Source of the DNA: an archaeon | GTDB lineage: Archaea > EX4484-52 > B79-G9 | DNA length: 24,037 nt | Reading direction: 5' to 3' | NCBI GenBank assembly: GCA_043813875.1 | Contig: JBDRKP010000063.1 | Location: 1 to 24,037, forward strand | In this document: in pieces, positions 2,195-22,963 of the stretch | Layout: every line of letters begins with the position of its first letter | Numbering within the stretch: position 1 is the stretch's first letter | Translations under genes and position numbers: made by a program | Notes under the pieces: model-generated | Seen by the model: only the letters and a program-made list of their open reading frames with translations | What the model was told of the DNA's origin: nothing | Database searches by the model: none

Positions 2195-2268
2195 TGCTCC
2201 TGCCGGGATTTGAACCCAGGTCGCTGGCGTGAGAGGCCAGAATGATTACCGGACTACACTACAGGAGC
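2195..2268 (-). tRNA. tRNA-Glu(CTC)
   Basis: GCTCCTG/CAGGAGC acceptor stem, anticodon arm CTGGC-CTCTCAC-GCCAG, GGTTCAAATCC T-arm. Confidence 0.95.
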
Positions 2269-9665: not shown

Positions 9666-9734
9666 TCTGATGATGAATAGGAGGTGAAATGATCCTTTTA
9701 GGAGATGATTCCACCTGCTTATCTGAGATCATCA
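9666..9734 (+). ncRNA. Candidate box C/D (double K-turn) small RNA
   Basis: C box ATGATGA 9670-9676, 12-nt spacer, D' ATGA 9689-9692, TCCT-TTT-AGGA hairpin, C'-like ATGATT 9705-9710, 12-nt spacer, D box CTGA 9723-9726. Intergenic, with a TATA-like ATATTTAAT upstream (9626-9634). Confidence 0.55.
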
Positions 9735-11792
9735 TTCTTTATATCCTGTGATTATGTTCTCTTTTTCCAGCCTGAATTTCAGGATGTTTTTTTTCACTTT
9801 CTTTCCCTTGTGCTCTATGCTCTTTATCCATCCCGGCAGGATCAGTTCGCAGGTGGTGCCTTTCGGGTCTTTCTTGAAGTCTATCCTGGCTTCGATGCCT
9901 CCTGTGGTCCTTTCGATCTTCAGGTCGAATGTGTGTGCGCCTGCTTTCTTCCCGGTCTTGTACATGTGACCCCAGGTGTCGGGTATCCTGGGCTCGATCC
10001 TGATGTGATTATCCTGCATGTCGGGTTTTATGCCGAAGAGATAATCGTCAATCGCATAGATAAAAAGCGATGAGGACCATGCCTGTTCTGTGGTGCCAAG
10101 CAGGCTGCCTGTTTCAGCGTCTATCACTTCGGATAGCGCCCCGGGCTGGAATCTTTCGGAGTCGTAAGCGAAGTCATCAAGGCAGTTGAGTCCGGTCTCT
10201 GTCATGCCGTATCTCAGGAAGGCTACTGCGCCCCAGCCTGTCGTCAGTCCCCAGCATGATCCTGTATGATAGCCGGAGGGGTTGTAGTTTTTGCTTGTCT
10301 TTGATCTTGTCCTGATGCCGTATATGCTCTTGAGCTCGGTTTTCGCCCTTTCCAGGACCAGATCTCCTTTCGCGTCCGGTGTCAGGCCGAAGAAGAGGGG
10401 GACCAGGCTGTTTGCGGTCACCTCGGGGTTCGGCAGGGTTGAGTATGTGTCGTAGTAGTTTTTCTTGTCGTTGTTCCAGAAGTTCTGGTTCAGTCTAGTG
10501 TTCATCTTCATCGACAGTTTCGGTTCAAGCGTCTTTAGCGCTTCTATCCACATCGCCTGGATTTCGACTGCGCTTCCCGGCCTTTCAATGGAGTCCATCC
10601 ATGTCTCGTCCGGCTTGTGGGTAACTATGTAGTCCATGAGTTCGAGATCCTTTAGTGATGTGTCTATGTTGCTTTTGAGCTCTTTTCTTAAGGACATATC
10701 GCCGCTTTTTTTCTCGTAGTCCATCAGTGTTATCAGGAATAGCGGGTCTATGTCGGCGCCGTGGAATTCTTTTGTCCCGTCGAGATGTATTATGCATGGC
10801 ATCTTTTTTTCCTGGTTTTTTGCCATTGTCCTGAATATCTCTTTTGCGGTCCCGAATTCACCCATGTCTATCAGGCCAAGAAGGCTCCAGAAGACGTCCC
10901 TACCCCAGAATTCAAGGAACCATGGATAGCCTGCGAATATGCTTAGGCCAAGTTCTGATCTGTTCAGGAGCCCGAGCAGGTTGTATTGGGTCCAGATGTA
11001 TGTCTTGTCCAGCCTGTCGTCGGGGGTGTTGATGTCGTGGTTGTGGTATATCTCTACTGATTTTTTCACTTTTGATGTCAGGATGCTGCTCCAGTTTTGA
11101 GCGCAGTAGTCGTATGCGTCTGTGAGCGCGTCTTTGCTTTTGGTGGTTGCGCAGTAGATGATGGGTATTTTTGTATCTTCTCCCGGGCCCAGATTGAGGC
11201 TGACGGAATAAACGGATGGGATGAAGCAGCGCTGCGGCGAGCCAGGGTTGTGGTTCTTGTAGTCTTTGATGAACCTGTTCTTTATTTCCAATGGAATCTC
11301 TGTCTTTCCGGCACCGAACATAGAGCATCCTATCTCTGAGGAGGTAAAGACGGAATTTCTCAGGTCGTTGTAGCCTGTCTCGTAGGTCCTGTCGTGGAGG
11401 TTTTCTTCTTTTGTCCTTATGTTGACTGCCGCTTCGATGGAAATGTCTATTTTTTGCTTATCTCTGGTCCTGTTCTTCAGGTGGAGGACTGAGATCACCG
11501 ATGGATATTCGTCTGGCGCAAAGACTGTCTCTGTGACGTCGAGGCCGTCCAGTGAAAAGTAATGTTTGGAGCCCCATGGCTTGATGGTGCATCTTGTTGA
11601 GTTGTTTCCAGAGAGCCATGTCCCGTTTATCTTATATGAATAATATTCGAATGCCTTGATGGGCGGGACCCATATGCCGCACCATTTGGTCTTGAAGCCG
11701 GTGTCTGTGAACCTGTTGATGAAAGAATAGAGGCCTGCGGTATTGTATTGCTTTTTTTCCAGCTCATTTTTTTCTATGTTCCAGCTTAGCAT
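9732..11792 (-). CDS. Glycogen debranching enzyme, amylo-alpha-1,6-glucosidase (GDE_C-type (alpha/alpha)6 barrel)
   Basis: AGYPWF..FWGRD, TWMDS, AVEIQA, YGIRT, YHTGSCW and QAWSS motifs; divergent from glycogen synthase. Confidence 0.9.
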   Translation of the reverse strand: MLSWNIEKNELEKKQYNTAGLYSFINRFTDTGFKTKWCGIWVPPIKAFEYYSYKINGTWLSGNNSTRCTIKPWGSKHYFSLDGLDVTETVFAPDEYPSVISVLHLKNRTRDKQKIDISIEAAVNIRTKEENLHDRTYETGYNDLRNSVFTSSEIGCSMFGAGKTEIPLEIKNRFIKDYKNHNPGSPQRCFIPSVYSVSLNLGPGEDTKIPIIYCATTKSKDALTDAYDYCAQNWSSILTSKVKKSVEIYHNHDINTPDDRLDKTYIWTQYNLLGLLNRSELGLSIFAGYPWFLEFWGRDVFWSLLGLIDMGEFGTAKEIFRTMAKNQEKKMPCIIHLDGTKEFHGADIDPLFLITLMDYEKKSGDMSLRKELKSNIDTSLKDLELMDYIVTHKPDETWMDSIERPGSAVEIQAMWIEALKTLEPKLSMKMNTRLNQNFWNNDKKNYYDTYSTLPNPEVTANSLVPLFFGLTPDAKGDLVLERAKTELKSIYGIRTRSKTSKNYNPSGYHTGSCWGLTTGWGAVAFLRYGMTETGLNCLDDFAYDSERFQPGALSEVIDAETGSLLGTTEQAWSSSLFIYAIDDYLFGIKPDMQDNHIRIEPRIPDTWGHMYKTGKKAGAHTFDLKIERTTGGIEARIDFKKDPKGTTCELILPGWIKSIEHKGKKVKKNILKFRLEKENIITGYKE

Positions 11793-12024
11793 GGTATCAC
11801 TTCTTCATATCTTTTCAATGTTCTTTTCTCTATACCGGGCTATATCCTGTCAATAATATTTGACTGATAAAACTATTTAAACGGAAACGTATATATATCT
11901 AACTAAAAGAATGGTTATATCTGAGTTATTGTCACTATATTGTCCTAAAAATGCTTGATTTGATGGAAGGACGATTCTTTAGTGATGAAAATTCTGTGCG
12001 ATAAGAAAAAAGGGTGTAAACACT

Positions 12025-13842
12025 ATGGATGATGTTGGGGCTGCTGGCGATTTTCTTTTTGAGGTGTCGTATGAGGTTGCAAATAAGGTAGGCGGTATCT
12101 ATGCTGTGATCCGTACGAAGTCAGAGCAGATGATGAAGTATTATGGCAATAACTATTATGTTATAGGATTCTATATTCCTGAACAGGCGAAGGTCGAATT
12201 CGAGGAAGAGGATCCGAAAGGGCTGAAGAAGACATTTCTTAAGCTTGAGAAGATGGGTATCAAGTGCCATTTCGGAAAGTGGGTCACTGCCGGGGGAAGG
12301 CCTAATTGCATATTGCTTGATATAAATGGTTATAAGCATCGGCTGAATGATATAAAGACCGAGCTATGGATGAAGTATAAGATCGATTCACTGCGCTCTG
12401 ATTCGTGGTTCGGGGATCCGGTGGTCTGGTCGTATGCAGTCGGCCTGCTTTTAGAGATGCTTGAGAAGGATATCGGGCTTAAGAATGCTGTCGCACAGTT
12501 CCATGAGTGGATGGCCGGTGTCGGACTGCTTTATCTCAAGTCGAAAGATTCCAAGATCGCGACGGTGTTCACTACGCATGCCACGATGCTTGGCAGGACG
12601 ATGGCAAGCTATACTGACAGTCTTGTCGATGAGATCGATGAAGGGCTGAAAAGCGGCAGGACTGTGGATCCGAAGAAGGCTTATGAGTATAGTGTCGAGG
12701 CGAAGCATCTTACTGGGGCTGCGTGCGCAAGGACATGCGATGTCTTTACGACGGTTTCGGAAACGACTGCAAGGGAGGCGGAATATATCCTGTCAAAGAA
12801 GCCTGATGTGGTGCTTCCGAACGGGCTTGACCTTGGAACTTATCCTTCCATGGAGGAGTGCGTATATCTGCATCGCAAGTATAAGGGCAAGATCATGGAG
12901 TTTCTTTCTGCTTATTTCAAGCCGTATTATGAGGTGAATCTCAATGATCCCCGTATCATGTATATCTCAGGGAGATATGAGATTCGCAACAAGGGCATAG
13001 ATATATTTGTGCGCAGCCTTTCGAAGCTGAATGATGAGCTCAAGGGAAAGAATTCTAATAAGGATGTGTTCGCTTTCATACTCATACCTGCAAATACGAG
13101 GAGCGAGAATCACGAGGTCCTTGAGAACCTCTCTTTGTTTTCCGGTATGAGGGAGTATGTCGATGACCTGTCTTTGGATATACGCTCGAATATGCTTGAT
13201 TCGCTTACGTCTGGCAAGACTGATATCAGGATATCTGATTATCTTACAGAGTACCAGAAGATCGAGGTGAAGAAGCTTGCTACATCTTTCAAGTCCCGGT
13301 CCGGCCGTTCGCCGCCTCTGTCTGCTTTTGACCTGTATGACCAGGGGGACCTGATCATCAAGATGCTTGTCGAGAACGGGCTTCTGAACCGCGAGGAGGA
13401 CAGGGTGAAGGTGATATTTTATCCCGCGTATCTTTCCAATTCGGACAGGATGCTTTCGTTGAGCTATAATTCGTTTACTATCGGATGCAGTCTTGGGGTG
13501 TTCCCGTCATCTTATGAGCCGTGGGGGTATACGCCGCTCGAGACTATAGCAAACGGGGCGCTGACTGTGACGACGGATCTTGCAGGGTACGGAAAGTTCA
13601 TGGAGAAGCATGTGAAGGGCCAGAAGGATAGCGGCATATACATATTGAAGAGAAGCGAAAAGAAGGATAATGAGGTTGTCGATGACCTGAAGAATATACT
13701 CCTTGAGGTTGTGAGGCTGGACAAGAGCGAGATAATATCCCGGAAGCATAATGCGAAGAAGCTGTCGCTTGTCGCTGACTGGAAGAATCTTGCGGGAAAT
13801 TATATTGTTGCGCATAACATGGCGCTCAAGAAGGTCAGGTGA
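12025..13842 (+). CDS. Glycogen synthase, GT3 family
   Basis: FEVSYEVANKVGGIY, FHEWMAG, FTTHATMLGR, SGRYEIRNKGID, RVKVIFYPAYL, and an intact catalytic FPSSYEPWGYTPLE (EX7E). Confidence 0.95.
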   Translation: MDDVGAAGDFLFEVSYEVANKVGGIYAVIRTKSEQMMKYYGNNYYVIGFYIPEQAKVEFEEEDPKGLKKTFLKLEKMGIKCHFGKWVTAGGRPNCILLDINGYKHRLNDIKTELWMKYKIDSLRSDSWFGDPVVWSYAVGLLLEMLEKDIGLKNAVAQFHEWMAGVGLLYLKSKDSKIATVFTTHATMLGRTMASYTDSLVDEIDEGLKSGRTVDPKKAYEYSVEAKHLTGAACARTCDVFTTVSETTAREAEYILSKKPDVVLPNGLDLGTYPSMEECVYLHRKYKGKIMEFLSAYFKPYYEVNLNDPRIMYISGRYEIRNKGIDIFVRSLSKLNDELKGKNSNKDVFAFILIPANTRSENHEVLENLSLFSGMREYVDDLSLDIRSNMLDSLTSGKTDIRISDYLTEYQKIEVKKLATSFKSRSGRSPPLSAFDLYDQGDLIIKMLVENGLLNREEDRVKVIFYPAYLSNSDRMLSLSYNSFTIGCSLGVFPSSYEPWGYTPLETIANGALTVTTDLAGYGKFMEKHVKGQKDSGIYILKRSEKKDNEVVDDLKNILLEVVRLDKSEIISRKHNAKKLSLVADWKNLAGNYIVAHNMALKKVR

Positions 13843-14009
13843 ATGCCTGACACTGGTTGATTTTCATGTGGCTTTCGAGGGGCACGTCAACATATGTTTG
13901 CATGATGAGTGGATATTATTGATTTATAACAGCGTTATATAATTTATGTTATTTTGTTACGGTTTTATAAACTATGAAATATAATATTTTATTTTGAATT
14001 GTGGGTTTT

Positions 14010-14762
14010 ATGGTAAATGGGTTGAATCAGGCGAATCAGAAGATCATCGAGAAGATATTGAAGCAGCTGCGGATGAGCCCTGCTGATGTGTCTTATGAAA
14101 AGAAGCCGAAGAATGTTGTTCTTATCACTGCCGAGTACCTGCCACGGGATATCACCCAGATTTCGCTCCAGTGCAAGAGTCTTGCTGAAGGCCTTGTCCA
14201 GAAGGGCATCAATACTCACGTGGTGTCTTTTGATCCATGGAAGGATGGGCAGACGGCAAATATCGGCGGGGCGGAAGTGCATTATGTCGGGAATTCGATT
14301 AAGTCGTATTCGCCTCTTACATGGGCTATCACTTTGAGCATGGAGATAGGACGGGTTGTCGCTGACATATATCATGCCGAGGGGAATATCGATCTTATCC
14401 ATACGCATGAGTGGCTGATGTTTCCGACGGGGATCACGCTTCAGCATGCGCTCAGGAAGCCGCTTATCACGAGCTATTATACGCTGCAGGAGCAGAGGAC
14501 TCCGGGGGTTGTCAATGGGTTCACGGAGGCTGTGAAGCAGATTGAGTGGAGGGCCAGCCAGGATGCGAACAGCATACATGTCAATGAAGACTGGATGAAG
14601 AATGCTCTCGTGCAGTTCTATTCTCCGAAGGAGTCGAAAGTGAATGTCTTCAGCCCGCAGACGCCGACGTGGGCGAAGGATATTGTGAGGGATTATTCGT
14701 GGGTGCTCAAGAACTGGGACGGGCTTGAGTGCAGCCTTAAGAAAGAGGAAATGGCCAAATAA
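14010..14762 (+). CDS. GT4 N-terminal-domain-only protein (probable pseudo-glycosyltransferase)
   Basis: Aligns with the N-terminal half of the next gene (ITAEYLP, IHTHEWL, KPLITS) but lacks the donor-binding domain and EX7E. Alternative GTG start at 14001. Confidence 0.8.
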   Translation: MVNGLNQANQKIIEKILKQLRMSPADVSYEKKPKNVVLITAEYLPRDITQISLQCKSLAEGLVQKGINTHVVSFDPWKDGQTANIGGAEVHYVGNSIKSYSPLTWAITLSMEIGRVVADIYHAEGNIDLIHTHEWLMFPTGITLQHALRKPLITSYYTLQEQRTPGVVNGFTEAVKQIEWRASQDANSIHVNEDWMKNALVQFYSPKESKVNVFSPQTPTWAKDIVRDYSWVLKNWDGLECSLKKEEMAK

Positions 14763-14781
14763 GATAATAAGGGTTTATGCT

Positions 14782-15996
14782 ATGAGAGTGCTTCATCTGA
14801 CATCTGAATATCCGCCGCATAAGGTCGGCGGGCTTGGGACGCATGTAGAGGAGCTGACGAGGGCGCAGGTGAAGGCAGGGATCGAGCCGATTGTTGTTGT
14901 CTGCGCTTTTTCGGGTAACCAGGGTTATGAAAATGTTGGCGGCGTGCATGTGTTCCGTTTCGATGCTGATAATATCCCGGCAGAGGATTTCCCTTCATGG
15001 GCGCTGCAGATGAATGTCCTTATGCAGAACAAGGCGAGCGAGGTCATCGAGGAGTTCAAGGATATCTCCCTGATACATGCGCATGACTGGCTTGTGGCGA
15101 CGGCGGCTGTCGGGATCAAGCATATATTCAGGATACCTTTGATTTCTACTGTCCATTCGCTTGAGAAAGGGCGGCGGGGCGGGATATATGAGGACCGCCA
15201 AGAGCTGATACATGATATCGAGCGCAAGATGGTGTATGAGTCGTGGAGGGTCATCACATGTTCTCATTTTATGAAGCAGTGTGTGTGCTCGTCGTTTTCT
15301 ACGCCCTGGGATAAGATTGACGTGATACCGAACGGGGTTGATATGTCCAGGTATGATTTTGATTATGCGCGTTACCAGGAAGTCAAGGGCAGGTTTGCTC
15401 TTCCTCATGAGAAGATTGTCTTTTTTGTGGGGAGGCATGTGTGGGAGAAGGGGCTTGATGTGCTTATCGGGGCTGCACGGTCGGTCATCGCCGAGGTGCC
15501 TGATGTCAAGTTTGTCGTCACGGGCGAAGGATATATGACTGATAAGTGCAAGGATATGGCGCATCAGATGGGTCTTGGCGATAAGGTCATGTTTACTGGA
15601 TATACTGATGAGGAAACGCTGAATGCGCTGTTCCATGTGTCGGATGTCATTGCTGTGCCTTCGAGGTACGAGCCGTTCGGGATTGTGGCGCTTGAGGGCA
15701 TGGCGTCAAGGACACCTGTTGTGGCTGCTGATACGGGTGGGCTTTCTGAGATCATACAGCATGACATCAACGGCCTGAAAGTGTGGGCGGGCCATTCGGA
15801 GTCTCTTGCTGTCGGGATCAAGCGGATACTCAAGGATCCCAAGCTGAAGGAGAGTATTGTCAGCAATGCATATGACACTGTGAAGAATGCGTATAGCTGG
15901 GGGGCTATCGCGAATATGACGAAGGCCACGTATGAGCGGATTGCCGGGGAGTACCAGAAGGCCAGCTGGAAGCCGAGTCCTGCGCTGATTAACTAG
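14782..15996 (+). CDS. Glycosyltransferase family 4 (alpha-glucan-cluster type)
   Basis: MRVLHLTSEYPPHKVGGLG, IHAHDWL, VIPNGVD, FVGR..EKG, PSRYEPFGIVALEGMA; start placed at ATG 14782 after the upstream stop. Confidence 0.93.
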   Translation: MRVLHLTSEYPPHKVGGLGTHVEELTRAQVKAGIEPIVVVCAFSGNQGYENVGGVHVFRFDADNIPAEDFPSWALQMNVLMQNKASEVIEEFKDISLIHAHDWLVATAAVGIKHIFRIPLISTVHSLEKGRRGGIYEDRQELIHDIERKMVYESWRVITCSHFMKQCVCSSFSTPWDKIDVIPNGVDMSRYDFDYARYQEVKGRFALPHEKIVFFVGRHVWEKGLDVLIGAARSVIAEVPDVKFVVTGEGYMTDKCKDMAHQMGLGDKVMFTGYTDEETLNALFHVSDVIAVPSRYEPFGIVALEGMASRTPVVAADTGGLSEIIQHDINGLKVWAGHSESLAVGIKRILKDPKLKESIVSNAYDTVKNAYSWGAIANMTKATYERIAGEYQKASWKPSPALIN

Positions 15997-16026: not shown

Positions 16027-16255
16027 TTATGCCAGGTCATTAAACTCATTTACTGATATCTCTGATTGTTTCAATATCTTTCTCAATAGCCCTCGGCCAA
16101 CAGTCTGATGGAGCGGAACAGTAATAGGCGCCTTCGAGTTATCACTTCTATGTATCATCCGGACATGACTCCCTTTCTGTCGCACAATCTCATATCCTAA
16201 CTTTTCAAAGCGCATTATGATCTCCCTTACCGGAAAGAACCGGAAGCTTGTTCAT
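16027..16255 (-). pseudogene. hicA: HicA mRNA interferase toxin with a 1-nt insertion frameshift after codon 10
   Basis: ATG 16255 gives MNKLPVLSGK; an extra G in AAG-G-GAG (16224-16226) then shifts to a stop at 16205-16207. The shifted frame continues EIIMRFEKLGYEIVRQKGSHVRM...ITVPLH...GLLRKILK (HicA GSH motif). Confidence 0.85.
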
Positions 16256-16260
16256 GACAG

Positions 16261-16515
16261 TCACACGTTAACCGCTACTGTATGAAATCCGAAGTCTTGC
16301 GCCTTTTGCATGTGAGACCGAATTTCGTCCCTTTTTTCTTCAACACAAATCTCTATGACTTCTTCTATGTTTTTCAGAGCTTCATCATGAGTTTTTCCCT
16401 GGGTAAAGCAGCCTTCAAGAACAGGACATTCAGCAATGAAAAAACCGTCTTCATCTTTTTCTACAAATACCGGGAACTGCATTCTCTCTTTTGTTGCCAT
16501 TGAATCACCATACAT
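16261..16515 (-). CDS. hicB: HicB-like antitoxin (short form), upstream of hicA
   Basis: FPVFVEKDEDGFFIAECPVLEGCFTQGKTHDEALKNIEEVI is the HicB N-terminal signature; no C-terminal DNA-binding domain. Confidence 0.92.
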   Translation of the reverse strand: MYGDSMATKERMQFPVFVEKDEDGFFIAECPVLEGCFTQGKTHDEALKNIEEVIEICVEEKRDEIRSHMQKAQDFGFHTVAVNV

Positions 16516-16574: not shown

Positions 16575-16664
16575 TCAAACATATTTTTCTGAATTCCATT
16601 CTGGTCCTTTTTTCTTTTTCTTTGCGTGATTTTCGAGGAATCCTTCGGTCTCGTCGGGGGACAT
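16575..16664 (-). other. Orphan 29-codon diverged copy of the C-terminus of the upstream TIM-barrel gene (small ORF or relic)
   Basis: MSPDETEGFLENHAKKKKKGPEWNSEKYV* aligns without gaps to ANPEEDHGLMSTEAVKKSKLTEWLAGRYR* (10/29 identical, same stop position). Confidence 0.7.
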
Positions 16665-16674
16665 ATCAAGTCAT

Positions 16675-18777
16675 CTACCTGTATCTTCCTGCCAGCCATT
16701 CTGTGAGCTTGCTTTTCTTTACTGCTTCCGTGGACATGAGGCCGTGGTCTTCTTCGGGGTTCGCTATCAGGCCTTTCAAGGGGTCGTAGGCGTGCTCGCG
16801 CATGTTTACCCATTGCTGGCTTTCGAACATCTCGTCTATGCCGTAGAATTCTTTAGGGAGTTTGAGAGGGTCGGTGTCTTTTGATAGTTCTTTCATGAGC
16901 AGCCTGAATGAGACTGCGCTTTCTTTTATGCCGTATGAGCCCATCTCCCAGATGAGGTATGAGTTCTTCATGCCTTTCTGTTTCATCTGGTAGAGCCAGC
17001 GGTAGATTATCTGCATGTCGCGGGATATGCGGTCTATCGGGGCGTGGGCGCCCATGACGGGTCTTGGGGCGTTTATGTGGACCATTTTTATGTATCTGCC
17101 TTCGCCGTCTTTCAGTGTCTTTATGTCGTCGGGGACGCTGATGTAGTTTACTGTGAGGTGCTCGAAGTCGACGCAGTAGGCGGTGCGTTTGCCTTCGTCG
17201 AGGTTCTTCACCAGTTTTATGTGGTCGCCTGCGCTCATGATCCTCAGCTGGCCTTCCTGGCCCTGGGGCGGCATGGCGGTCTCGATGAAGATGTTGACGT
17301 TGCCGGCTGCGCAGTAGTCGTAGACTGACTGGTCTTTTTCCAGGTCTTTGTCGTCTGCTTTCATGGACCATCGCTGGTTGCTTACGAAGAGGTGGCCCTG
17401 GATGTATTTGCATGCGACTGCGGTTATGAGTTTTTCGACGAGTTCTTTTGATTTCGGGCCGCTTTTTTCTTCTGTGGCGGAGTCGCCTGGTTTTGAGCGG
17501 TAGTGTTCGTAGCCCTGCTCGTTGTTCCATGTGATGAGGTCGGGGTCGTATTTCTTGCCGACTATGTCTTCCCAGAGGGGGTCGCCCGTCACCCACAGGT
17601 ATTTTGCGATGACGCGGTATGCTACCTGCTCTTCGCCTTCGGAGCCGTGGCGGCGCCAGAAATTAAATACTTCGTTGAAATCTGTTCTTTCGAGATAAGC
17701 ATTAGTACTCTGGAATTCTTTTATCCTTTTCTGGATATCCGGTTTCTTTCTTAACACTGCCTGTTGAAATATTGATTCCATTGTTCCCGTATCTATGCTC
17801 CTAAGTGTTGCTTCTACTCTAGCAAGCATTACTTCAACATTTACAAGTTCGTTTGTTGCCGAAGGATCAACTAATGCTTTACTTTGAAGTTGAGCTTTTC
17901 TAGCTACCAAATACTCCTTTTTATTTAATTCTTCTTGTTGTGCTTTGTTTCTTTCTTCTCTTACTCCTTCGTTCCATTCACGTAAAAGCCGATCATATTC
18001 TCCTTTTACTTTATCTTCTCCGTCTTCAAAACCACTTCCATTCTTATCCAACATGAACTCGTCGAAATATGCCACTGTGCTAACGTCAGCAGGTGCGCCC
18101 ATGGCATTGAACAGGATGCTGACAAAACGGCCCATGAACCAGTCTTGCATACTCTTGAATTTAGTGCCGCTTGGCGTTGTTTTCGGGCATGTGATGAGTC
18201 CTCTTTTCGGGTCGTTGTATTCGCATTTGTCTACTTTTTTCATGAATTCGGCGAGGTTCATGCCGTCGAAGGCGTAGAGCGCTACTCTGGGTTCCTGCTG
18301 GCCTACGTCGAAGGTGACGTGGGGGCGTATTCTTGATGAGGTGTGGAACAAGAGGTATTTGGATTCTATGAGCTTCCGTGCGGAGTAGGCGCCTTTTGTC
18401 AGCCTTTCGTGCATGATCTTCCATTCGTAGGCGCCGGCAATGCATAAGTCTATGTCGGTCATGAGGTGGAGGCCGACTTCGAATTTGCGGCCTGTGTGGA
18501 TGTCGCCCTGGCTTTTTTTTATGTGGGCGATCTGTTCTTTTATGTCGGCTTCGAACATCTCTGACAATGCCTCGTAGTCTATCTGGCAGAAGTCAAAGCC
18601 GAGCCTTGCGGCTTTCATTATCTTCCGGGCGAGGCCCATGTTGGTCAGTTTCTCTTCGCCCTGCTCGAACTGCGAGAAGCCGGGGGTGACGCCGATGATA
18701 TAGTCTATCGGATGGTTGTCTTTTGTCCATCTCTTGTCTATGAAGTTGTCTTTTGTCTGTCCGGCCATGCTGCTCAC
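16675..18777 (-). CDS. Large AP-endonuclease-2/xylose-isomerase-like TIM-barrel metalloprotein with a long helical insertion
   Basis: Metal-ligand-like motifs in endonuclease IV order: VGLH, LLFH, [~350-aa insert], IFIE, VDFEH, MVH, AH, LIWE. Start GTG 18777 or ATG 18768. Confidence 0.8.
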   Translation of the reverse strand: MSSMAGQTKDNFIDKRWTKDNHPIDYIIGVTPGFSQFEQGEEKLTNMGLARKIMKAARLGFDFCQIDYEALSEMFEADIKEQIAHIKKSQGDIHTGRKFEVGLHLMTDIDLCIAGAYEWKIMHERLTKGAYSARKLIESKYLLFHTSSRIRPHVTFDVGQQEPRVALYAFDGMNLAEFMKKVDKCEYNDPKRGLITCPKTTPSGTKFKSMQDWFMGRFVSILFNAMGAPADVSTVAYFDEFMLDKNGSGFEDGEDKVKGEYDRLLREWNEGVREERNKAQQEELNKKEYLVARKAQLQSKALVDPSATNELVNVEVMLARVEATLRSIDTGTMESIFQQAVLRKKPDIQKRIKEFQSTNAYLERTDFNEVFNFWRRHGSEGEEQVAYRVIAKYLWVTGDPLWEDIVGKKYDPDLITWNNEQGYEHYRSKPGDSATEEKSGPKSKELVEKLITAVACKYIQGHLFVSNQRWSMKADDKDLEKDQSVYDYCAAGNVNIFIETAMPPQGQEGQLRIMSAGDHIKLVKNLDEGKRTAYCVDFEHLTVNYISVPDDIKTLKDGEGRYIKMVHINAPRPVMGAHAPIDRISRDMQIIYRWLYQMKQKGMKNSYLIWEMGSYGIKESAVSFRLLMKELSKDTDPLKLPKEFYGIDEMFESQQWVNMREHAYDPLKGLIANPEEDHGLMSTEAVKKSKLTEWLAGRYR

Positions 18778-18879
18778 AAGTGTCTAAAATATATATACCT
18801 TGGTGTCTTAATAGATATTGTATATTATGCCGGTGCCAGAATAAATAATTTTTTGGGTATTGCCGGTTTATGGGTGGTC

Positions 18880-19398
18880 ATGATAAATCTTGATTTTGTC
18901 GATAAGCTGAAGACGAAGTTCCAGAAGAAGAACCTGGATCAGGAGATTGATGCTGCTTTTGATGATTCGGGGGCTTATTCTAAGAAGGTGCTTGACAGCA
19001 ATAGCAAGTATTCGCGGGGTGATGAGCAGCTGAGCAGCGCGTACCAGCTTGAGAGGCAGCCTGAGCCGCCGAAGCCGGTTGTTGCGCCGGGTCTTGATAA
19101 TCCGGTCGATGTCTATGATCAGCGGCAGTCGACAGATATTGATGATCCGCTTTCGCTTCCTGCCGGTATTGACCGGCCGCCGCAGCAGGGTGGGGCGCCT
19201 TTGCAGAGGATGAAGGAGCGATCGACGGATTATGAGCGAAGGGAGTTTTTCGGTGCGAGTCCGCCGATGGCGAGCAGGTCTGATCTTGCAAATGCTGATG
19301 TGGGTACTATCCTTCTTGAGCTTAAGGATCTGCGTACGCAGAATGAGCATATCATGGATCTGCTGAAGAATATCCAGGACCGGCTGAGACGGTACTAG
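18880..19398 (+). CDS. Hypothetical protein (172 aa): disordered P/D-rich body and C-terminal coiled coil
   Basis: Start moved to ATG 18880 (GGGTGG SD; avoids overlap with the divergent gene). C-terminal heptads ILLELKDLRTQNEHIMDLLKNIQDRL. Confidence 0.8.
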   Translation: MINLDFVDKLKTKFQKKNLDQEIDAAFDDSGAYSKKVLDSNSKYSRGDEQLSSAYQLERQPEPPKPVVAPGLDNPVDVYDQRQSTDIDDPLSLPAGIDRPPQQGGAPLQRMKERSTDYERREFFGASPPMASRSDLANADVGTILLELKDLRTQNEHIMDLLKNIQDRLRRY

Positions 19399-19404
19399 GC
19401 GAGG

Positions 19405-19914
19405 TCATAGTTTTTGCGCGACTGTCTGTTCTCTTTGGTATATGCCGTATAGTTTTTTCATCTCGATGAGCATCCTGTAGTAGATCTCTCTTCCTTCTTC
19501 CAGTACTTTTGTGCGGTAGTTGTTGTAGAACATGTAGTTGTAGGACCACCACAGGCTTTTCTGGATGCTGTGGGTGTATTCGTATTCTGTCTCGAGGGTG
19601 CCTACCAGTTTCATTTTCATCCAGCCGTTTTTTTCGGGGTCGCCAAGTGTCTGCTGTCCCCAGGCGCGGACCATTATCCTTATGTTTGTCCAACGGTCCC
19701 ATGGCCTTTTGCCTACCCATTCGGCTTTGAAGTCGCCGCCTGTCTGGTCCCAGCCGAGGTAGTGTATGTAGAATTTGGGGTTGTCTATCTCCATTGTCTT
19801 TAAGACTATGTCTTTTACGTATCTTCTTACGCGGAACGGCTCTTTTCCTTTGAAGCTTATGACGATGTTGTCTGATTCCTGGGTCAGTTCATCCTTGTAC
19901 TTTAACATGGGCAT
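19405..19914 (-). CDS. Hypothetical alpha/beta protein, paralog of 19889-20422
   Basis: Native codon bias; shares G..P, W...D..T, TEY....IQ.S and FY...R....E.G motifs with its neighbour. Confidence 0.85.
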   Translation of the reverse strand: MPMLKYKDELTQESDNIVISFKGKEPFRVRRYVKDIVLKTMEIDNPKFYIHYLGWDQTGGDFKAEWVGKRPWDRWTNIRIMVRAWGQQTLGDPEKNGWMKMKLVGTLETEYEYTHSIQKSLWWSYNYMFYNNYRTKVLEEGREIYYRMLIEMKKLYGIYQREQTVAQKL

Positions 19915-20422
19915 GGTGTCTCAATTCCTCGGAGTATTCCTTCAGGGTGTTTTCAAATTCTGATGCCAGGTCTTTGCCTAGCTCTATCCATTTCTGCCTT
20001 TGCTTGGCGTAGAATGTGTCATGCCAGAAACGACGGACCATCTCGTAGAGTATTGATTGCTGGATGAGGGTGTCCTGGGGGTATTCTGTGATTATCCTCG
20101 GCTTCAGCCTTACGGAGGCGGATCCTTCGCCTTCTGTGGTGCTTCCGACAAGCACGATGTCGTATCTTAGGTATGTGTATATGTCCATCTCTTTTGTAAG
20201 GCGCCATTTGATGTTGAATTTGTCTGTGTTCTTGTGGGTTTCCCAGGTGTAGTTCATTTCCTGGATGCGGCCGACGGGTATGTTGAATATGTCGTGCATC
20301 ATCGAGCGGATCTTGTTGTAGAATTTCTCGGGGTGAGGGCCGGCGTAGTTGAAGAGGATGTCTTTTTCGCCTGGCTCGTAGAGGTTGTCGAATATTACCA
20401 GTTTTGTCCTTGCCCATACCAT
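19889..20422 (-). CDS. Hypothetical alpha/beta protein, paralog of 19405-19914
   Basis: Same motif series as its neighbour; 26-nt overlap with the downstream paralog. Confidence 0.85.
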   Translation of the reverse strand: MVWARTKLVIFDNLYEPGEKDILFNYAGPHPEKFYNKIRSMMHDIFNIPVGRIQEMNYTWETHKNTDKFNIKWRLTKEMDIYTYLRYDIVLVGSTTEGEGSASVRLKPRIITEYPQDTLIQQSILYEMVRRFWHDTFYAKQRQKWIELGKDLASEFENTLKEYSEELRHHAHVKVQG

Positions 20423-20519
20423 GTGAATTCCCCTGAAATTGTGTTAAATATATATATTAATAATTGCGGTACTATATATTATTTATCATGTGATGTGTTT
20501 GTTTGCGGGGGGTGTTTCA

Positions 20520-20798
20520 TTGCATCCGATATATGATCCAAAGACTCTTAAGAAGGCTACTGAGGCGTATTTCCAGGAGGACTGGAATGAGATGCTAAAG
20601 ATAAATCTTTCTATGCTTGATGAGCGGCCCGGTGATGAGTTTCTTTTATGGCATATCGCTGATACGTATATCAAGCTCGGCAATGTCGGGAAGGCTGTCG
20701 AGTTTGCGGAGATGATCAAGGAGAGCGATGTCCACCGGGATGATATCATGATAAAGGCGGCGCACCTGTTGCCGGCGGAGCCTCTGGATAAGGATTGA
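20520..20798 (+). CDS. Small TPR-like protein (~92 aa)
   Basis: TTG start after a GGGGGTG SD; A..YF..DW......LDERPGD...LWHIADTYIKLGNVGKAVE is a TPR pattern. Confidence 0.65.
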   Translation: MHPIYDPKTLKKATEAYFQEDWNEMLKINLSMLDERPGDEFLLWHIADTYIKLGNVGKAVEFAEMIKESDVHRDDIMIKAAHLLPAEPLDKD

Positions 20799-21646: not shown

Positions 21647-22963
21647 TCAGCCGATGAGCTGTCTTTCTCTGCGTCTTTTGATGATGTATCTTATGAGCGC
21701 GTAGGATATGATGAGTATTGAGAGCATGAGGGCTATCTTTGCGCCTGACGGGGTGAGGTATCTTTCGATGATGTTTCCTGTCGGGGTGTTTTGGATTTCT
21801 GCTGCATTAGCCGGGATGGTGAATGATTGTTCGTATATTGTGCCTTCTGTGCCTGATATCGCAAGGCTGTGGATGCCGGGGCCAAGCGAGGCTGTGGAGA
21901 GGGCAATGTAGAAGCAGTTGTCTTTGTCCAGCATGAAGGCGATGTCCATCCTGCTGTCTATCGTGACGGTGAGGTCTTTTGCGCTGCCGTTGAGGCAGCC
22001 CTCTACTGTGAGTAACTCTTTTTTATCGTCGTAGCCGAGGAGGGGGTCTTTCTTTTCTTTCCTGTCTTCTGTGGGGATGTCTTGTTCCTGCACTTCGAAT
22101 GTGATCTTGCGCTCGATGGTGGCTGCGCCCGAGCTGACGGTTATTTTCGCTGTGCGGATGCCGATGTCTGCGGGCCCGGGGGTCATCGTGAATGCGTACC
22201 GGGATTCCTCTCCGGGGGCTATGTTCTGTGTCTCTGCGCCGGTGATGTCCAGTGCGACGCTGACGTCGTATGGTTTGTTGCCTGTGTTCTTTATTGTGAC
22301 GATGATGGATTCCTCTACTGACGGGTGCATGACGAGGGGGTATTGTATGGATCTTATCTCGAGCATGGGGGGCTGTTCTATCTGTATGGTCGTGGTGCTT
22401 GTCTTTGATGAGCCTGATTTTTTTGAGTATGAGCCGGATGATGGCGGGGTGGTGAGTGTGATCGCAGTCTTGGTGCTGTATGTGTAGTTTTTGGCTTTTG
22501 CGGAGATGTTTATGGTGTGGAGGCCTGCGTTGTAGGCCTTTGTGTCCCAGGCGATGCCGTAGGCCATGCCGGGCTGGATGTAGCCGTAGCCGTAGCCGAA
22601 GTGGTGCTGGTGGGATGTGCTGTTGTCGTTTGCGTAGCCGTAGCCGTATGTGTATGAAGAGAGGGATGTGGGGGTGAGTGTGAATGTGGAGCATATCTGC
22701 GGGGATGAGGGGGAGAGGGTGCCATTGATGCTGTATGCGCAGCCGGTGCCGTCTATGGCGAGGATTATCTCTTCGAGCGGGATGCGTTCGCCTGTGTCTA
22801 TGTCTATGTGGAATGTGAATGTGATGATGTCGCCGATTGCCGCATTTTGCGGGAGGCCGGATATGTCGAGCCTTACGGCCTCTGCGGGGCCTGAGGCGAG
22901 TAGTATGGCCAGGGTGAATATTGTTATGAGGGCGCTTGTGTATGCTCTTTCTTTGAGTACCAT
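21647..22963 (-). CDS. Membrane-anchored cell-surface protein (signal peptide, GYGYGY domain, S/T linker, Ig/CARDB-like domains, C-terminal TM)
   Basis: Signal peptide ending AEA; YTYGYGY and FGYGYGY motifs; S/T/K linker; VTIKNTG...IAPGEE CARDB-like motif; PTGNII, TM helix and KRRRER tail. Confidence 0.85.
   Translation of the reverse strand: MVLKERAYTSALITIFTLAILLASGPAEAVRLDISGLPQNAAIGDIITFTFHIDIDTGERIPLEEIILAIDGTGCAYSINGTLSPSSPQICSTFTLTPTSLSSYTYGYGYANDNSTSHQHHFGYGYGYIQPGMAYGIAWDTKAYNAGLHTINISAKAKNYTYSTKTAITLTTPPSSGSYSKKSGSSKTSTTTIQIEQPPMLEIRSIQYPLVMHPSVEESIIVTIKNTGNKPYDVSVALDITGAETQNIAPGEESRYAFTMTPGPADIGIRTAKITVSSGAATIERKITFEVQEQDIPTEDRKEKKDPLLGYDDKKELLTVEGCLNGSAKDLTVTIDSRMDIAFMLDKDNCFYIALSTASLGPGIHSLAISGTEGTIYEQSFTIPANAAEIQNTPTGNIIERYLTPSGAKIALMLSILIISYALIRYIIKRRRERQLIG

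Follow-up and report, generated by a model that had tools for sequence, protein, structure and literature searches.

A core archaeal gene for a predicted metallo-barrel protein with a lineage-exchanged coiled-coil cassette and a tail-homologous micro-gene

We analyzed a 24,037-nucleotide stretch of archaeal DNA (the window) and propose that its gene for a 700-aa protein encodes a core metallo-barrel enzyme carrying a coiled-coil cassette exchanged between lineages. According to this proposal, the conserved C-terminal tail of the enzyme would be a docking peptide, and a conserved micro-gene homologous to the tail would encode its free mimic. We assign this reading as a whole a probability of about 0.6.

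Results

A single-copy gene family of one Aenigmatarchaeota order

The gene under study and its immediate extent are as follows.

16675..18777, minus strand: gene for the 700-aa protein, a single-copy core gene (GTG start; the database copy begins at Met4)

This family was found in 38 of 42 genomes of one Aenigmatarchaeota order (10 of 10 when only the high-quality ones are counted), with one ORF per genome carrying the gene and one copy in the window's own genome. Among the 65 homologs that were collected, every labeled one is archaeal or DPANN, and 141 family representatives were present among 1.8 billion proteins. Searches of Pfam, NCBIfam, PADLOC, PHROGs, and PDB sequences with the protein or its profile returned nothing or coiled-coil noise, a search of the window with Rfam returned only a single tRNA outside the locus of the gene, and titles and abstracts in the literature contained nothing on the family, the cassette, or the tail-derived micro-gene. 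From these results, we conclude that the 700-aa protein is the product of a core, single-copy, Aenigmatarchaeota-specific, unnamed family.

When the cassette is left out, the codon usage of this gene falls in the most G/C3-biased class of its genome, and the protein is probably abundant and important in the cell. It looks cytoplasmic, having neither a signal peptide nor a surface anchor. The hosts of the gene are tiny symbiotic archaea.

Conserved neighbors of the gene and an unrelated hicAB pair

Comparison of loci, including a check of the genes at 18880-20798, showed that three neighbors, which we call c1, c2, and c4, are conserved near the gene in its relatives.

18874..19398, plus strand: c1, about 174 aa from an internal Met, with conserved ends and a disordered P/Q-rich middle (locus comparison)
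19405..20422, minus strand: c2, two tandem paralogs of 169 and 177 aa with a 26-nt overlap (locus comparison)
20490..20798, plus strand: c4, conserved, 102 aa, with only weak TPR-like matches (Pfam, locus comparison)
16027..16515, minus strand: hicB (16261..16515) and hicA (16027..16215), between the micro-ORF and conserved glycosyltransferase genes (Pfam)

The c1 gene is transcribed divergently from the 700-aa gene and adjoins it in most relatives, and c2 is a DPANN-specific family kept near it, for which an Atlas search gave a weak START/Bet v1-like lead (TM about 0.5). A further conserved partner, c3, was modeled from its 602-aa copy in the window's own genome (pLDDT 65); a structure search with this model gave no outstanding match (the highest Z, 9.5, fell on small domains and helical hairpins).

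On the downstream side, the order of the glycosyltransferase and glycogen genes is collinear with that of relatives, the genes that directly follow the 700-aa gene vary between loci, and the only linked one is a 29-codon homolog of its tail. The sequence-only reading that preceded this work had noted hicBA beside the gene. Both genes are there (PF07927, E 4.8e-17; PF15919, E 4.2e-8), and they are missing from all five same-genus loci that extend far enough downstream (L003-L006 and L024), which have other genes in their place. In addition, none of the ORFs from the other loci grouped with the 84-aa hicB ORF in a clustering with a 70-aa cut-off, which the 62-aa hicA falls below. Because these five orthologous loci lack the pair, hicAB is a window-specific insertion that lies outside the system of the 700-aa gene.

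The protein is predicted to be an interrupted (β/α)8 barrel

Secondary structure, structure alignments, and conservation divide the protein into two half-barrels and an insertion.

18343..18705, minus strand: N-terminal half of the TIM barrel, residues 25-145, strands 1-4, with GLH (H104) and LFH (H145) (AF2 secondary structure, VIA alignments, conservation)
16864..17295, minus strand: C-terminal half of the TIM barrel, residues 495-638, strands 5-8, with FIE (E499), DFEH (D537, H540), MVH (H567), AH (H578), and IWE (E611) (conservation, AF2, VIA)
17296..18342, minus strand: insertion domain, residues 146-494 (conservation and AF2)

The AF2 model (pLDDT 90.4, pTM 0.86) contains an eight-strand barrel, and six of the seven motifs end one of its strands: GLH (102-104) in strand 100-104, LFH (143-145) in strand 141-145, FIE (497-499) in strand 495-499, DFEH (537-540) with strand 532-537, MVH (565-567) in strand 563-568, and IWE (609-611) in strand 607-611. 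The seventh, AH (577-578), is in the loop following strand 7 and not at a strand end. The His, Glu, and Asp residues of the motifs are invariant or nearly so across 46 family members, and 353 residues separate LFH from FIE, which confirms the earlier description of an ORF of about 700 aa with seven ligand motifs split by an insert of about 350 aa.

When the model was compared with known structures by VIA-align, Escherichia coli Endo IV (1qtw) gave a Z of 20.1 with 263 of 285 residues aligned (rmsd 3.5), level with IolI (1i6n, Z 20.0) and the ketose 3-epimerases (Z 19-20). The alignments cover model residues 25..638, and the best 48 rows are nearly all from the xylose isomerase-like superfamily (Z 15-20, 235-292 residues aligned); the top Foldseek match was 8xiv (E 8.7e-4). 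The model thus has the fold of this superfamily, with Glu, Asp, and His at strand ends as judged by position and conservation. At the sequence level, neither PF01261 nor the nfo and NCBIfam models (including TIGR00587) matched the protein at E up to 1, no PDB sequence was matched by the single sequence or its profile, and a precomputed PF01261 match is present in 28 of the 65 homologs and in none of the 27 closest. The model, the VIA alignments, and the conserved ligand residues support the metallo-TIM-barrel scaffold with a large insert that the earlier reading had suggested, and they show a fold, as modeled, of the xylose isomerase/Endo IV type, a (β/α)8 barrel into which a conserved domain of 350 aa is inserted after strand 4.

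Endo IV has a trinuclear metal site built from nine residues. Eight of the nine positions on its ligand list fit the 700-aa protein by motif order; at the ninth, where Endo IV has an Asp located two positions ahead of the last His, the protein has Gly576. We take H104, H145, E499, D537/H540, H567, H578, and E611 to follow the order of the Endo IV metal ligands. The sugar isomerases, as one-metal E-D-H-E enzymes, are not known to have the two early histidines. Because the conserved set keeps the Endo IV ligand order including these two histidines, metal-dependent phosphodiester hydrolysis appears more likely than sugar isomerization, and the protein may be an Endo-IV-like metallo-phosphodiesterase. 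It is possible, though we consider it the less probable chemistry, that the enzyme is instead a sugar or sugar-phosphate isomerase, epimerase, or dehydratase, as most PF01261 members are. The tie between the sugar enzymes and Endo IV in the structure comparison, the name "sugar phosphate isomerase/epimerase" given to one homolog in one source, and the glycogen-metabolism genes 3-7 kb from the gene are all consistent with this alternative; however, the DxxH motif and the conserved histidines that close strands 3 and 4 fit the ligand order of Endo IV, and the glycogen genes are unlinked to the 700-aa gene beyond its closest relatives. Also speaking against an Endo-IV-like role, the genome encodes a separate small protein that is weakly nfo-like; hhalign aligned only 28 columns of it with the family profile (probability 0.2%).

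The tip of the insertion is a hypervariable, AT3-rich cassette

The insertion domain consists of a conserved β-rich part (residues 146-245), a coiled-coil hairpin, and a conserved helical part (373-494), and the hairpin coincides with a compositional island.

17662..18042, minus strand: hypervariable AT3-rich coiled-coil cassette, codons 246-372 (GC3, AF2, trees)

In the AF2 model the cassette forms helices 250-301, 306-327, 331-344, and 346-364, which are predicted to build a long antiparallel coiled-coil hairpin at the tip of the insert. A maximum-likelihood change-point analysis set its boundaries at codons 246-372, with a GC3 of 0.21 inside and 0.70 elsewhere in the gene (2*dLL 105), so the in-frame cassette of distinct composition reported earlier is real. 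It contains 24 G/C-ending codons, compared with 81.8 (sd 4.4) expected from the per-amino-acid codon usage of the flanks. Because the count stays low against this expectation, the low GC3 is a matter of altered synonymous codon choice, not of amino-acid composition. None of the other genomic ORFs, in a set of 979 with 200 aa or more, shows an internal GC3 dip as deep as this one (-0.51), and the runner-up lies at -0.31.

The same dip is present in 13 of 19 orthologs, and a distant relative, L019, does not have it (GC3 0.68/0.66/0.66). Because so many orthologs share the dip, the low GC3 is no evidence of recent foreign import into this genome, and it could be an intrinsic property of the region instead of a trace of transfer; for method, the lesson is that a compositional island within a gene does not by itself establish recent import. 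These data demonstrate that the cassette evolves under another regime than the rest of the gene, being nearly free in sequence and length and using A/T-ending codons. The hairpin would be an exposed arm whose sequence is either unconstrained or under diversifying pressure.

We considered the cassette as the target of a diversity-generating retroelement and rejected this candidate, as the genome holds no copy of a template repeat: a blastn search of the entire genome with the cassette (word size 7) recovered only the cassette itself, all other matches being no longer than 48 nt and no better than E 0.04. Pfam found no reverse transcriptase among the ORFs at 14-24 kb and the few others scanned.

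Cassettes group against the phylogeny of their flanks

Homologs with closely similar flanks can carry very different cassettes. Identities in the N flank, cassette, and C flank are 94, 14, and 98% for P0009 and P0011; 94, 19, and 97% for P0008 and L002; and 95, 25, and 97% for P0007 and L006. At equal flank identity (94-98%), cassette identity spans 14-76%, and P0008 and P0011 have a common cassette type (51%) while belonging to different flank clades. The type-B cassettes come solely from protein cluster representatives of metagenome assemblies. In the protein trees, flanks and cassettes each hold starred clades that conflict with the other tree. AU tests on clades chosen after inspection of the trees rejected the cassette clades on flank data (p 2.1e-53 and 5.4e-9) and the flank clades on cassette data (p 2.2e-7 and 4.4e-4), and c1, c2, and c4 group as the flank tree does. 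The trees of the segments are thus not congruent.

Nucleotide comparisons agree in both directions: between L005 and L006, identity drops from 84-87% in the flanks to 51% in the cassette, and between L005 and L004 it is 78-79% and 76%, respectively. For L004-L005, pS is 0.36 in the cassette versus 0.83-0.84 in the flanks, and for L005-L024 it is 0.17 versus 0.34-0.36. Because four-taxon site counts at the nucleotide level, although significant, are distorted by GC3 differences between lineages, we relied on the protein trees and AU tests. The case for exchange rests on the conflict between trees and not on composition.

It has to be asked whether the cassette was exchanged at all, or is a fast-evolving linker with relaxed selection on amino acids and codon accuracy and A/T-biased mutation, so that the mosaics come from rate differences or assembly errors. 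The sharing of the GC3 dip by 13 of 19 orthologs fits such a linker, as does the cassette pN/pS, which is high yet below 1 with a pS that is often close to that of the flanks. A fall of GC3 with conservation is also seen in the flanks, from 0.74 in invariant to 0.57 in variable columns, and the window's cassette scores highest against same-genus cassettes. We nevertheless regard this explanation as improbable, because cassette identity varies so widely among pairs whose flanks are equally diverged, L004-L005 and L005-L024 show less divergence in the cassette than in the flanks, and one cassette type occurs in two flank clades with congruence rejected both ways. Moreover, the cassette columns lie at a GC3 of 0.19 (p 4e-10), whereas two other, comparably unconserved stretches of the gene have 0.63 and 0.48, and L019 shows that the region can have G/C3-rich codons.

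Based on these comparisons, recombination between lineages of the genus has replaced the cassette, while inheritance was vertical for the barrel, for the remainder of the insert, and for the neighboring genes. A phmmer search for a donor matched the window's own cassette to same-genus cassettes only, at about 25-30% identity, and a single pattern scan of viral contigs with it found no relative. Because none of the cassettes in the collected homologs matched it above about 30%, replacement in the window's own genome is inferred from its relatives.

A conserved micro-ORF downstream is homologous to the C-terminal tail

Past the barrel, the protein ends in a conserved tail, a homolog of which follows the gene.

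16678..16773, minus strand: conserved flexible C-terminal tail, residues 669-700 (conservation, AF2)
16575..16664, minus strand: 29-codon micro-ORF (with stop), homolog of the tail (profile search, conservation, codon-position statistics)

The C-terminus is among the best-conserved parts of the protein. Over the last 336 residues, the window's protein shares 74-85% identity with the same-genus proteins, and these share 85-100% with one another; within the tail P674, E675, A685, and W694 are nearly invariant. The tail has a pLDDT of 51-69 in an otherwise confident model. As candidate motifs, the PIP box and HbYX were rejected, since the hydrophobic positions that they require are not conserved over 19 tails.

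A profile of 45 tails searched against 44,779 six-frame ORFs of the genome found the gene itself (4e-14), then the micro-ORF (E 0.0017), and next a match at 1.4. The tail and micro-ORF profiles aligned end to end in hhalign (96.9% probability, E 1.8e-10), and the micro-ORF retains the four nearly invariant residues (P, E, A, and W). The spare C-terminus noted earlier at this place is therefore a real homolog of the tail. The micro-ORF is present in all six same-genus (g1) genomes in which the site is assembled and was found only there; in the window, L003, L004, L005, L006, and L024 it is intact, with 29 codons and the start and stop kept, and G005 has a full-length match over 29 positions. 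It begins 10 nt past the stop of the gene in the window and lies 979 nt away, behind an inserted ORF, in L003.

The micro-ORF might be a non-functional remnant of a partial 3' duplication, or of a displaced older allele, that has not yet decayed. Its homology to the tail and its place directly after the gene suit such an origin, and it is closer to the tails of distant clades (E 0.001-0.004) than to that of the 700-aa gene beside it (E about 8), which would be expected of a leftover from a replaced allele. Against this origin, the start, length, and stop are kept while host-gene pS reaches 0.5-1.0 and the spacer ranges from 10 to 979 nt. The micro-ORF also stays by the gene while its downstream neighbor changes (hicB, a glycosyltransferase, aRF1, and others), and its variable sites fall mostly in third positions (7, 9, and 25 at codon positions 1, 2, and 3, of 29 each), with pN 0.03-0.05 and pS 0.24-0.52 in the closer pairs. 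The antisense frame that shares its wobble positions has stops in four of six loci. We thus find a remnant decidedly improbable, and the data show a micro-gene whose own frame is under purifying selection and which is probably cotranscribed with the 700-aa gene.

The locus does not resemble a polymorphic toxin system

The sequence-only reading had likened the locus to polymorphic toxin and variable surface systems, in which a constant scaffold swaps modules and gathers orphan C-termini, with hicBA marking a conflict island. One internal module is indeed exchanged, a tail-like ORF follows the gene, and a hicAB pair is adjacent. Of its exchangeable modules, however, only the internal cassette qualifies; the C-terminus is conserved, with tail residues invariant over 19 loci, and the downstream copy is no exchanged spare. 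The variable part is an internal coiled coil and not a C-terminal toxin domain, and Pfam, NCBIfam, PADLOC, and PHROGs gave no secretion, trafficking, toxin, or defense domains. A single-copy gene in 38 of 42 genomes is not accessory or patchy, the supposed orphan is constant in length, start, and stop with a pN much lower than pS, and hicAB is absent at the five orthologous loci. Based on these observations, we regard a toxin- or effector-like locus as very improbable.

Recurrence in independent assemblies

The window comes from a 90-contig genome bin, and its cassette or tail region could in principle have been joined from another organism during metagenome assembly. Public runs contained only short, low-depth contigs, none spanning the whole stretch; no public contig with at least 31 nt on each side bridges the 5' boundary of the cassette, and contigs of three public runs equal the window over 16608..16878 and then diverge inside the micro-ORF at an A-rich run. 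Such a chimera has, in our estimation, a close to negligible probability, as a barrel with a low-GC3 cassette at the same place and the micro-ORF recur in independent assemblies. Inside the cassette, a contig from a different study shows 0 differences over 168 nt; one of 298 nt, from a third study, extends across the 3' boundary at 17662 with 15 differences; and the downstream gene order is collinear with that of relatives.

Discussion

The arrangement described above suggests how the parts of this locus may work together. The conserved flexible tail would be a docking peptide for a partner or a neighboring subunit, and the putative micro-protein would be a free copy of it that competes for or pre-occupies the same site, in the manner of a microProtein-type regulator. 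We are more doubtful of a fuller version, in which g1 translates its spare copy on its own as a 29-residue micro-protein, competition for the binding site of the tail regulates the enzyme, and the coiled-coil arm is an exposed interaction surface under diversifying pressure from a host or virus of the archaea, which are episymbionts, its alleles older than the species and moving between them by recombination.

DPANN archaea abound in conserved genes of unknown function, and this gene is near-universal in its order. The confident fold and Endo-IV-like ligand set make the enzyme open to direct biochemical tests. Exchange of the sharply bounded cassette between congeneric lineages can be traced in groundwater metagenomes, where it would mark recombination and perhaps an arms race, and this codon-deoptimized, swappable arm sits on what may be one of the most abundant proteins of the cell. 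If translated, the tail-derived micro-gene would give archaea one of few clear examples of a micro-protein that mimics a domain.

Compared with Endo IV (Nfo, 1qtw), the 700-aa protein has the same barrel, and the series H, H, E, DxxH, H, xH, and E that closes its strands 3-8 runs in the order of the Endo IV metal ligands. It differs in its length (700 versus about 285 aa), in the 353-aa coiled-coil insertion domain after strand 4, in having no nfo or PF01261 HMM match, in one ligand position being Gly, and in its conserved C-terminal tail. With the PF01261 sugar enzymes (IolI, 1i6n, and the ketose 3-epimerases) it shares the fold, and 28 of 65 homologs have PF01261, whereas the two extra conserved histidines and the insertion domain set it apart.

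Polymorphic toxin and CDI loci likewise have a tail-like coding fragment downstream of a full gene. In contrast, no cognate immunity gene follows the 700-aa gene, the only linked downstream ORF being the tail homolog; the C-terminus is conserved, the gene is a core gene, and the fragment is under purifying selection.

Streptococcal coiled-coil surface proteins are encoded by mosaic genes with recombining variable segments between conserved flanks. The 700-aa gene resembles them in its conserved flanks and in a hypervariable internal coiled coil that comes in discrete types against the flank phylogeny. Unlike them, it encodes a core, single-copy archaeal enzyme that looks cytoplasmic and is without signal peptide or surface anchor, and the codon usage of its cassette is opposite to that of the remainder of the gene.

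MicroProteins, as outlined in two papers (PMC9638782, PMC4807768), are small single-domain proteins that are related to an interaction domain of a larger protein and act by occupying its partners, and they are described there in plants and animals, mostly for transcription factors. The micro-ORF shares with them the encoding of a very small, putative protein homologous to an interaction-type segment of a larger protein in the same genome, whereas here it is a 29-residue copy of an enzyme's tail, immediately downstream of the gene, in an archaeon. If the proposed role is true, the micro-protein would be a prokaryotic, enzyme-directed counterpart of the eukaryotic microProteins.

The enzyme gene is a core gene and encodes a predicted endonuclease IV-like barrel

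The enzyme gene (16675..18777, minus strand) is a single open frame of 700 codons, in which all seven motifs named in the sequence-only reading are present:

GLH, residues 102-104
LFH, residues 143-145
FIE, residues 497-499
DFEH, residues 537-540
MVH, residues 565-567
AH, residues 577-578
IWE, residues 609-611

The His, Glu, and Asp residues of these motifs are invariant or nearly so across 46 family sequences. In an AlphaFold2 model of the enzyme made with 46 family members as input (pLDDT 90.4, pTM 0.86), the chain forms a barrel of eight strands (residues 27-31, 63-67, 100-104, and 141-145 in the N-terminal half; 495-499, 532-537, 563-568, and 607-611 in the C-terminal half), with six of the seven motifs at the ends of strands 3 to 8 and AH in the loop after strand 7. 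Because 353 residues part strand 4 from strand 5, the earlier description of a ∼350-aa insert within the barrel is correct.

When this model was compared with known structures, as the sequence-only reading had proposed, VIA-align returned a barrel of the xylose isomerase/Endo IV kind: Escherichia coli endonuclease IV (1qtw; Z 20.1, 263 aligned residues, rmsd 3.5), IolI (1i6n; Z 20.0), and ketose 3-epimerases and other xylose isomerase-like barrels (Z 15-20), with weak agreement from Foldseek. On the basis of the model this fold assignment is firm; the predicted structure gives no firm choice between a nuclease-like and a sugar-enzyme-like protein.

Searches with the enzyme against Pfam, NCBIfam, and PDB sequences gave no match. 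A word-indexed search returned 65 homologues, the labeled ones all from DPANN or unclassified archaeal MAGs; a precomputed PF01261 match is present in 28 of the 65 and in none of the 27 closest. Among 1.8 billion cluster representatives, searched exhaustively, only 141 relatives were found at E values up to 0.001, and in the Atlas the enzyme falls in Aenigmatarchaeota clusters. Although the enzyme behaves as a member of the xylose isomerase/Endo IV barrel superfamily, no sequence model places it in Nfo. The ordinary AP endonuclease of this genome is more likely to be a 267-aa PF01261 protein (L059:1426-2229, plus strand) with weak, sub-threshold nfo matches; two further small PF01261 proteins are encoded on L058 and L060.

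The enzyme gene, single-copy in the window's genome, was found as one ORF in each of 38 of the 42 genomes of the order, including 10 of 10 high-quality ones, and it is therefore a core gene and not an accessory one.

The predicted coiled-coil hairpin is encoded by a codon-deoptimized cassette

Over codons ∼241-350 of the enzyme gene, GC3 falls from ∼0.70 to 0.14-0.26 with GC1 and GC2 level, and a two-change-point fit delimits a cassette of codons 246-372 (17662..18042; GC3 0.21 versus 0.70). The cassette contains 24 codons ending in G or C, compared with 81.8 (sd 4.4) predicted from the per-amino-acid usage of its flanks. Asp is encoded by GAC at 40 of 41 flank positions and by GAT at 6 of 7 in the cassette, and Gly codons end in G or C in 37/40 and 0/6 cases, respectively. 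No other intragenic GC3 dip in the genome's 979 ORFs of 200 aa or more is as deep (-0.51; next, -0.31). The second-deepest, in a 508-aa ORF (C23:24128-25654, plus strand; codon 371, 0.30 versus 0.61), may be another cassette-like segment. In the AlphaFold2 model, the cassette coincides exactly with the insert's long antiparallel coiled-coil hairpin (helices at residues 250-301, 306-327, 331-344, and 346-364). The flank GC3 (0.69) exceeds the 99th percentile of the genome's genes (0.679), and the genes for aEF2 and the thermosome share the preferred codons of the flanks (GAC, GGC) with a GC3 of only 0.51; outside its cassette, the enzyme gene appears to be among the most codon-optimized in the cell.

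Of 19 orthologues in other assemblies, 13 have the dip (0.53/0.31/0.52 and 0.46/0.19/0.44 are examples) and 6, all of them distant, do not. One of the distant relatives, L019, is G/C3-rich throughout (0.68/0.66/0.66), so A/T richness is not compulsory in this region. An intrinsic explanation, weaker codon bias at unconstrained residues, was also checked. This effect exists, as flank GC3 is 0.74 at invariant, 0.71 at ≥70% conserved, and 0.57 at variable columns (p 5e-4). The cassette (0.19) is far under even the variable flank columns (p 4e-10), and two other unconserved stretches of the gene have GC3 of 0.63 and 0.48. Low GC3 alone is no sign of import. From the dip in the orthologues and the position of the cassette below the variable flank columns, we conclude that its composition reflects a separate history or a separate constraint of this segment, common to the whole family f1, and no recent event in the window's genome. 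The compositionally foreign cassette of the sequence-only reading is real; its composition does not show that it was imported recently.

Cassettes have been exchanged between lineages

Segments of this gene, for which separate trees and recombination tests had been proposed, were compared among 15 same-genus proteins (flanks defined as residues 20-240 and 365-700). The flanks form clear groups, X, Y, and Z, and three separate lineages, one of which contains the window, and the cassettes are discrete types that cut across groups X, Y, and Z. Divergence is far from uniform along the gene, with cassette identities of 14-25% between flanks of 94-98%:

Identity between protein pairs (N flank, cassette, C flank)
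P0009 and P0011: 94%, 14%, 98%
P0008 and L002: 94%, 19%, 97%
P0007 and L006: 95%, 25%, 97%

Conversely, one cassette type is shared at 51% by P0008 (group Y) and P0011 (group X), and another at 71% by P0005 (X) and L002 (Y). Starred clades of the maximum-likelihood trees of flanks and cassette are in conflict. AU tests, for clades chosen after the trees had been seen, rejected the cassette clades with the flank data (p 2.1e-53 and 5.4e-9) and the flank clades with the cassette data (p 2.2e-7 and 4.4e-4). The same mosaic is present in DNA. Between L005 and L006, nucleotide identity is 84-87% in the flanks and 51% in the cassette, which is unalignable save at its edges. For L005 and L004 the figures are 78-79% and, over the entire cassette, 76%; cassette pS for this pair is 0.36, versus 0.83-0.84 in the flanks. 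The neighbor genes c1, c2, and c4 follow the flank groups, and the exchange is therefore confined to the cassette. Cassette pN/pS is high (about 0.4-0.75) and never >1, a sequence pattern that indicates relaxed constraint with no sign of positive selection.

The window's cassette shares no more than ∼30% identity with any known cassette, and its flanks are 85-89% identical to P0003. No donor was found among the collected homologues or in a viral-contig pattern scan; a replacement in the window's genome is inferred from its relatives. That the cassette or the tail region is instead an assembly chimera is unlikely, as the same gene architecture is present in independent assemblies. Among short contigs from public groundwater and soil runs, one of 168 nt (X2) lies inside the cassette with zero differences from the window and one of 298 nt (X4 record 14) crosses the 3′ cassette boundary with 15 differences; at the 5′ boundary, no piece from these runs has at least 31 nt on each side.

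A conserved micro-ORF downstream encodes a homologue of the enzyme tail

Ten bases past the TAG of the enzyme gene, in another frame, is a micro-ORF (16575..16664, minus strand) of ATG, 28 codons, and a stop, whose product can be aligned over its full length with the final 28 residues of the enzyme. When the 44,779 six-frame ORFs of the genome were searched with a profile of 45 tails, it was the second-best match (E 0.0017), with the next at 1.4, and when 19 tails were compared with 6 micro-ORFs profile to profile, the probability was 96.9% (E 1.8e-10). The nearly invariant tail residues Pro, Glu, Ala, and Trp are all kept.

A micro-ORF with the same start, length, and stop lies 3′ of the gene in L003, L004, L005, L006, and L024 and also in G005. 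It is present in 6 of the 8 genomes of genus g1; the other two are uninformative, one contig ending 560 nt past the gene and one genome (68% complete) missing the gene as well. The spacer is 10 to 32 nt except in L003, where it is 979 nt because of an inserted 296-aa ORF of unassigned family (L003:8091-8981), beyond which the micro-ORF is intact. The next gene varies by locus (hicB, glycosyltransferase, aRF1, and others), and the micro-ORF travels with the enzyme gene. An order-wide scan outside g1 found only the enzyme's own C terminus (five places) and two weak partial matches.

Variable sites number 7, 9, and 25 at the three codon positions (of 29 each), and the sole antisense frame with coincident wobble positions has stops in 4 of 6 loci. 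Values of pN are 0.03-0.05 at pS 0.24-0.52 and about 0.2 at saturated pS, with pS noisy because synonymous sites are few. These substitution patterns argue that the micro-ORF is not a decaying orphan. The "spare C-terminus" of the sequence-only reading is accordingly a genuine tail homologue, and the orphan part of that proposal does not hold for an ORF kept in six of eight genomes with pN far below pS.

The micro-ORF is closer to tails of distant clades (E 0.001-0.004) than to the tail of its own gene or the tails of family f1 (both at E about 8), and its start Met is at the position of an internal Met in the tails of many relatives. It may have arisen by a partial 3′ duplication or be the remnant of a displaced allele. 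In three public groundwater runs from two studies, contigs have no difference from the window when read from 16878 to 16608 and then depart, at codon 19 of the micro-ORF, after a lysine run; by our own translation, their next 30 letters read QDVWHQEKYR, the ending found in L005 and L006. The micro-ORF may itself be mosaic, or the contig of the window may pass to another strain at 16608; the departure is a junction left by strain-level recombination or else a switch made by the assembly in the A-rich run.

The enzyme gene has conserved neighbors

Other features of the window are:

2195..2268, minus strand, tRNA gene, the sole Rfam match in the window
5742..7910, minus strand, T2SSE-type secretion/pilus ATPase, 722 aa
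9732..11792, minus strand, amylo-alpha-1,6-glucosidase-like
12025..13842, plus strand, glycogen synthase
14001..14762 and 14725..15996, plus strand, two GT4-like glycosyltransferases
16027..16515, hicA/hicB
19405..20422, minus strand, tandem c2 paralogues of 169 and 177 aa, DPANN-only family
21647..22963, minus strand, 438-aa protein carrying a weak CARDB-like repeat, a stretch rich in Ser and Thr, and a hydrophobic anchor at its C terminus

The glycogen-type block (9732..15996) is collinear with that of same-genus relatives, and hicB and hicA lie between it and the micro-ORF. The pair has a GC3 of 0.34-0.41, under the genome's usual range, is missing from orthologous loci, and looks like a recent insertion. 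In L003-L005 the block directly follows the micro-ORF, so hicAB is a local insertion unlinked to the enzyme gene; its presence beside the gene, noted in the sequence-only reading, is confirmed.

On the other side, a conservation check of the genes at 18880-20798 found that most relatives have a divergent ∼174-aa c1, tandem 170-aa c2 paralogues, and a ∼100-aa c4. The c2 family (an Atlas cluster of 1354 members, DPANN only) weakly resembles START/Bet v1-like proteins in structure (TM about 0.5), which is its only lead. Distant clades have a ∼600-aa c3 with very conserved motifs (L016:4077-5957, L017:4335-5978, and L020:4293-5996) and a ∼110-aa c7 directly upstream of the enzyme gene with 4-10-nt gaps; in the window's genome, c3 is unlinked to it (L062:1186-2994, minus strand). 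The c3 model was mediocre and its structure search gave no convincing match, and c1, c2, c3, c4, and c7 had no family match. This conserved neighbor set suggests that the enzyme has a multiprotein function.

Shorter relatives (about 570 aa) of the 722-aa ATPase adjoin c1 in two other genera, and the N-terminal extension of this ATPase has a GC3 dip of -0.26 at codon 36. The 438-aa protein is probably a surface protein, judging from its sequence features.

Proposed mechanism and comparison with known systems

By motif order, the putative ligands of the enzyme (H, H, E, DxxH, H, xH, E) correspond to the Endo IV trinuclear site at eight of nine positions; the ninth position is Gly576. One-metal sugar enzymes are not known to have the histidine that follows strand 3 or the one that follows strand 4. 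Given this Endo IV-like order with both histidines, metal-dependent phosphodiester chemistry would be favored over sugar isomerization, at about 55:30.

The coiled-coil arm, 86-173 residues long across the family, tolerates replacement and length change and would be either a spacer under structural constraint only or an exposed surface under diversifying pressure. The enzyme tail is conserved yet has a pLDDT of 51-69 in the monomer model, a combination typical of docking peptides; it may dock on something else. The microprotein would be a free, selected copy of this tail peptide from the same locus, most simply a competitor or placeholder for the putative docking site of the tail.

Two kinds of known locus were considered as models and rejected, as the enzyme gene fails the defining features of both the polymorphic-toxin locus, to which it had been likened and which its core status also contradicts, and the DGR target. 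Mosaic genes whose variable segments recombine are known. MicroProteins are known in eukaryotes (PMC9638782, PMC4807768). The archaeal enzyme gene with its exchanged cassette and micro-ORF is a real and unusual feature. In the literature searched, by titles and abstracts, a core archaeal enzyme that combines a codon-deoptimized, swappable coiled coil with a tail-derived micro-gene is undescribed.
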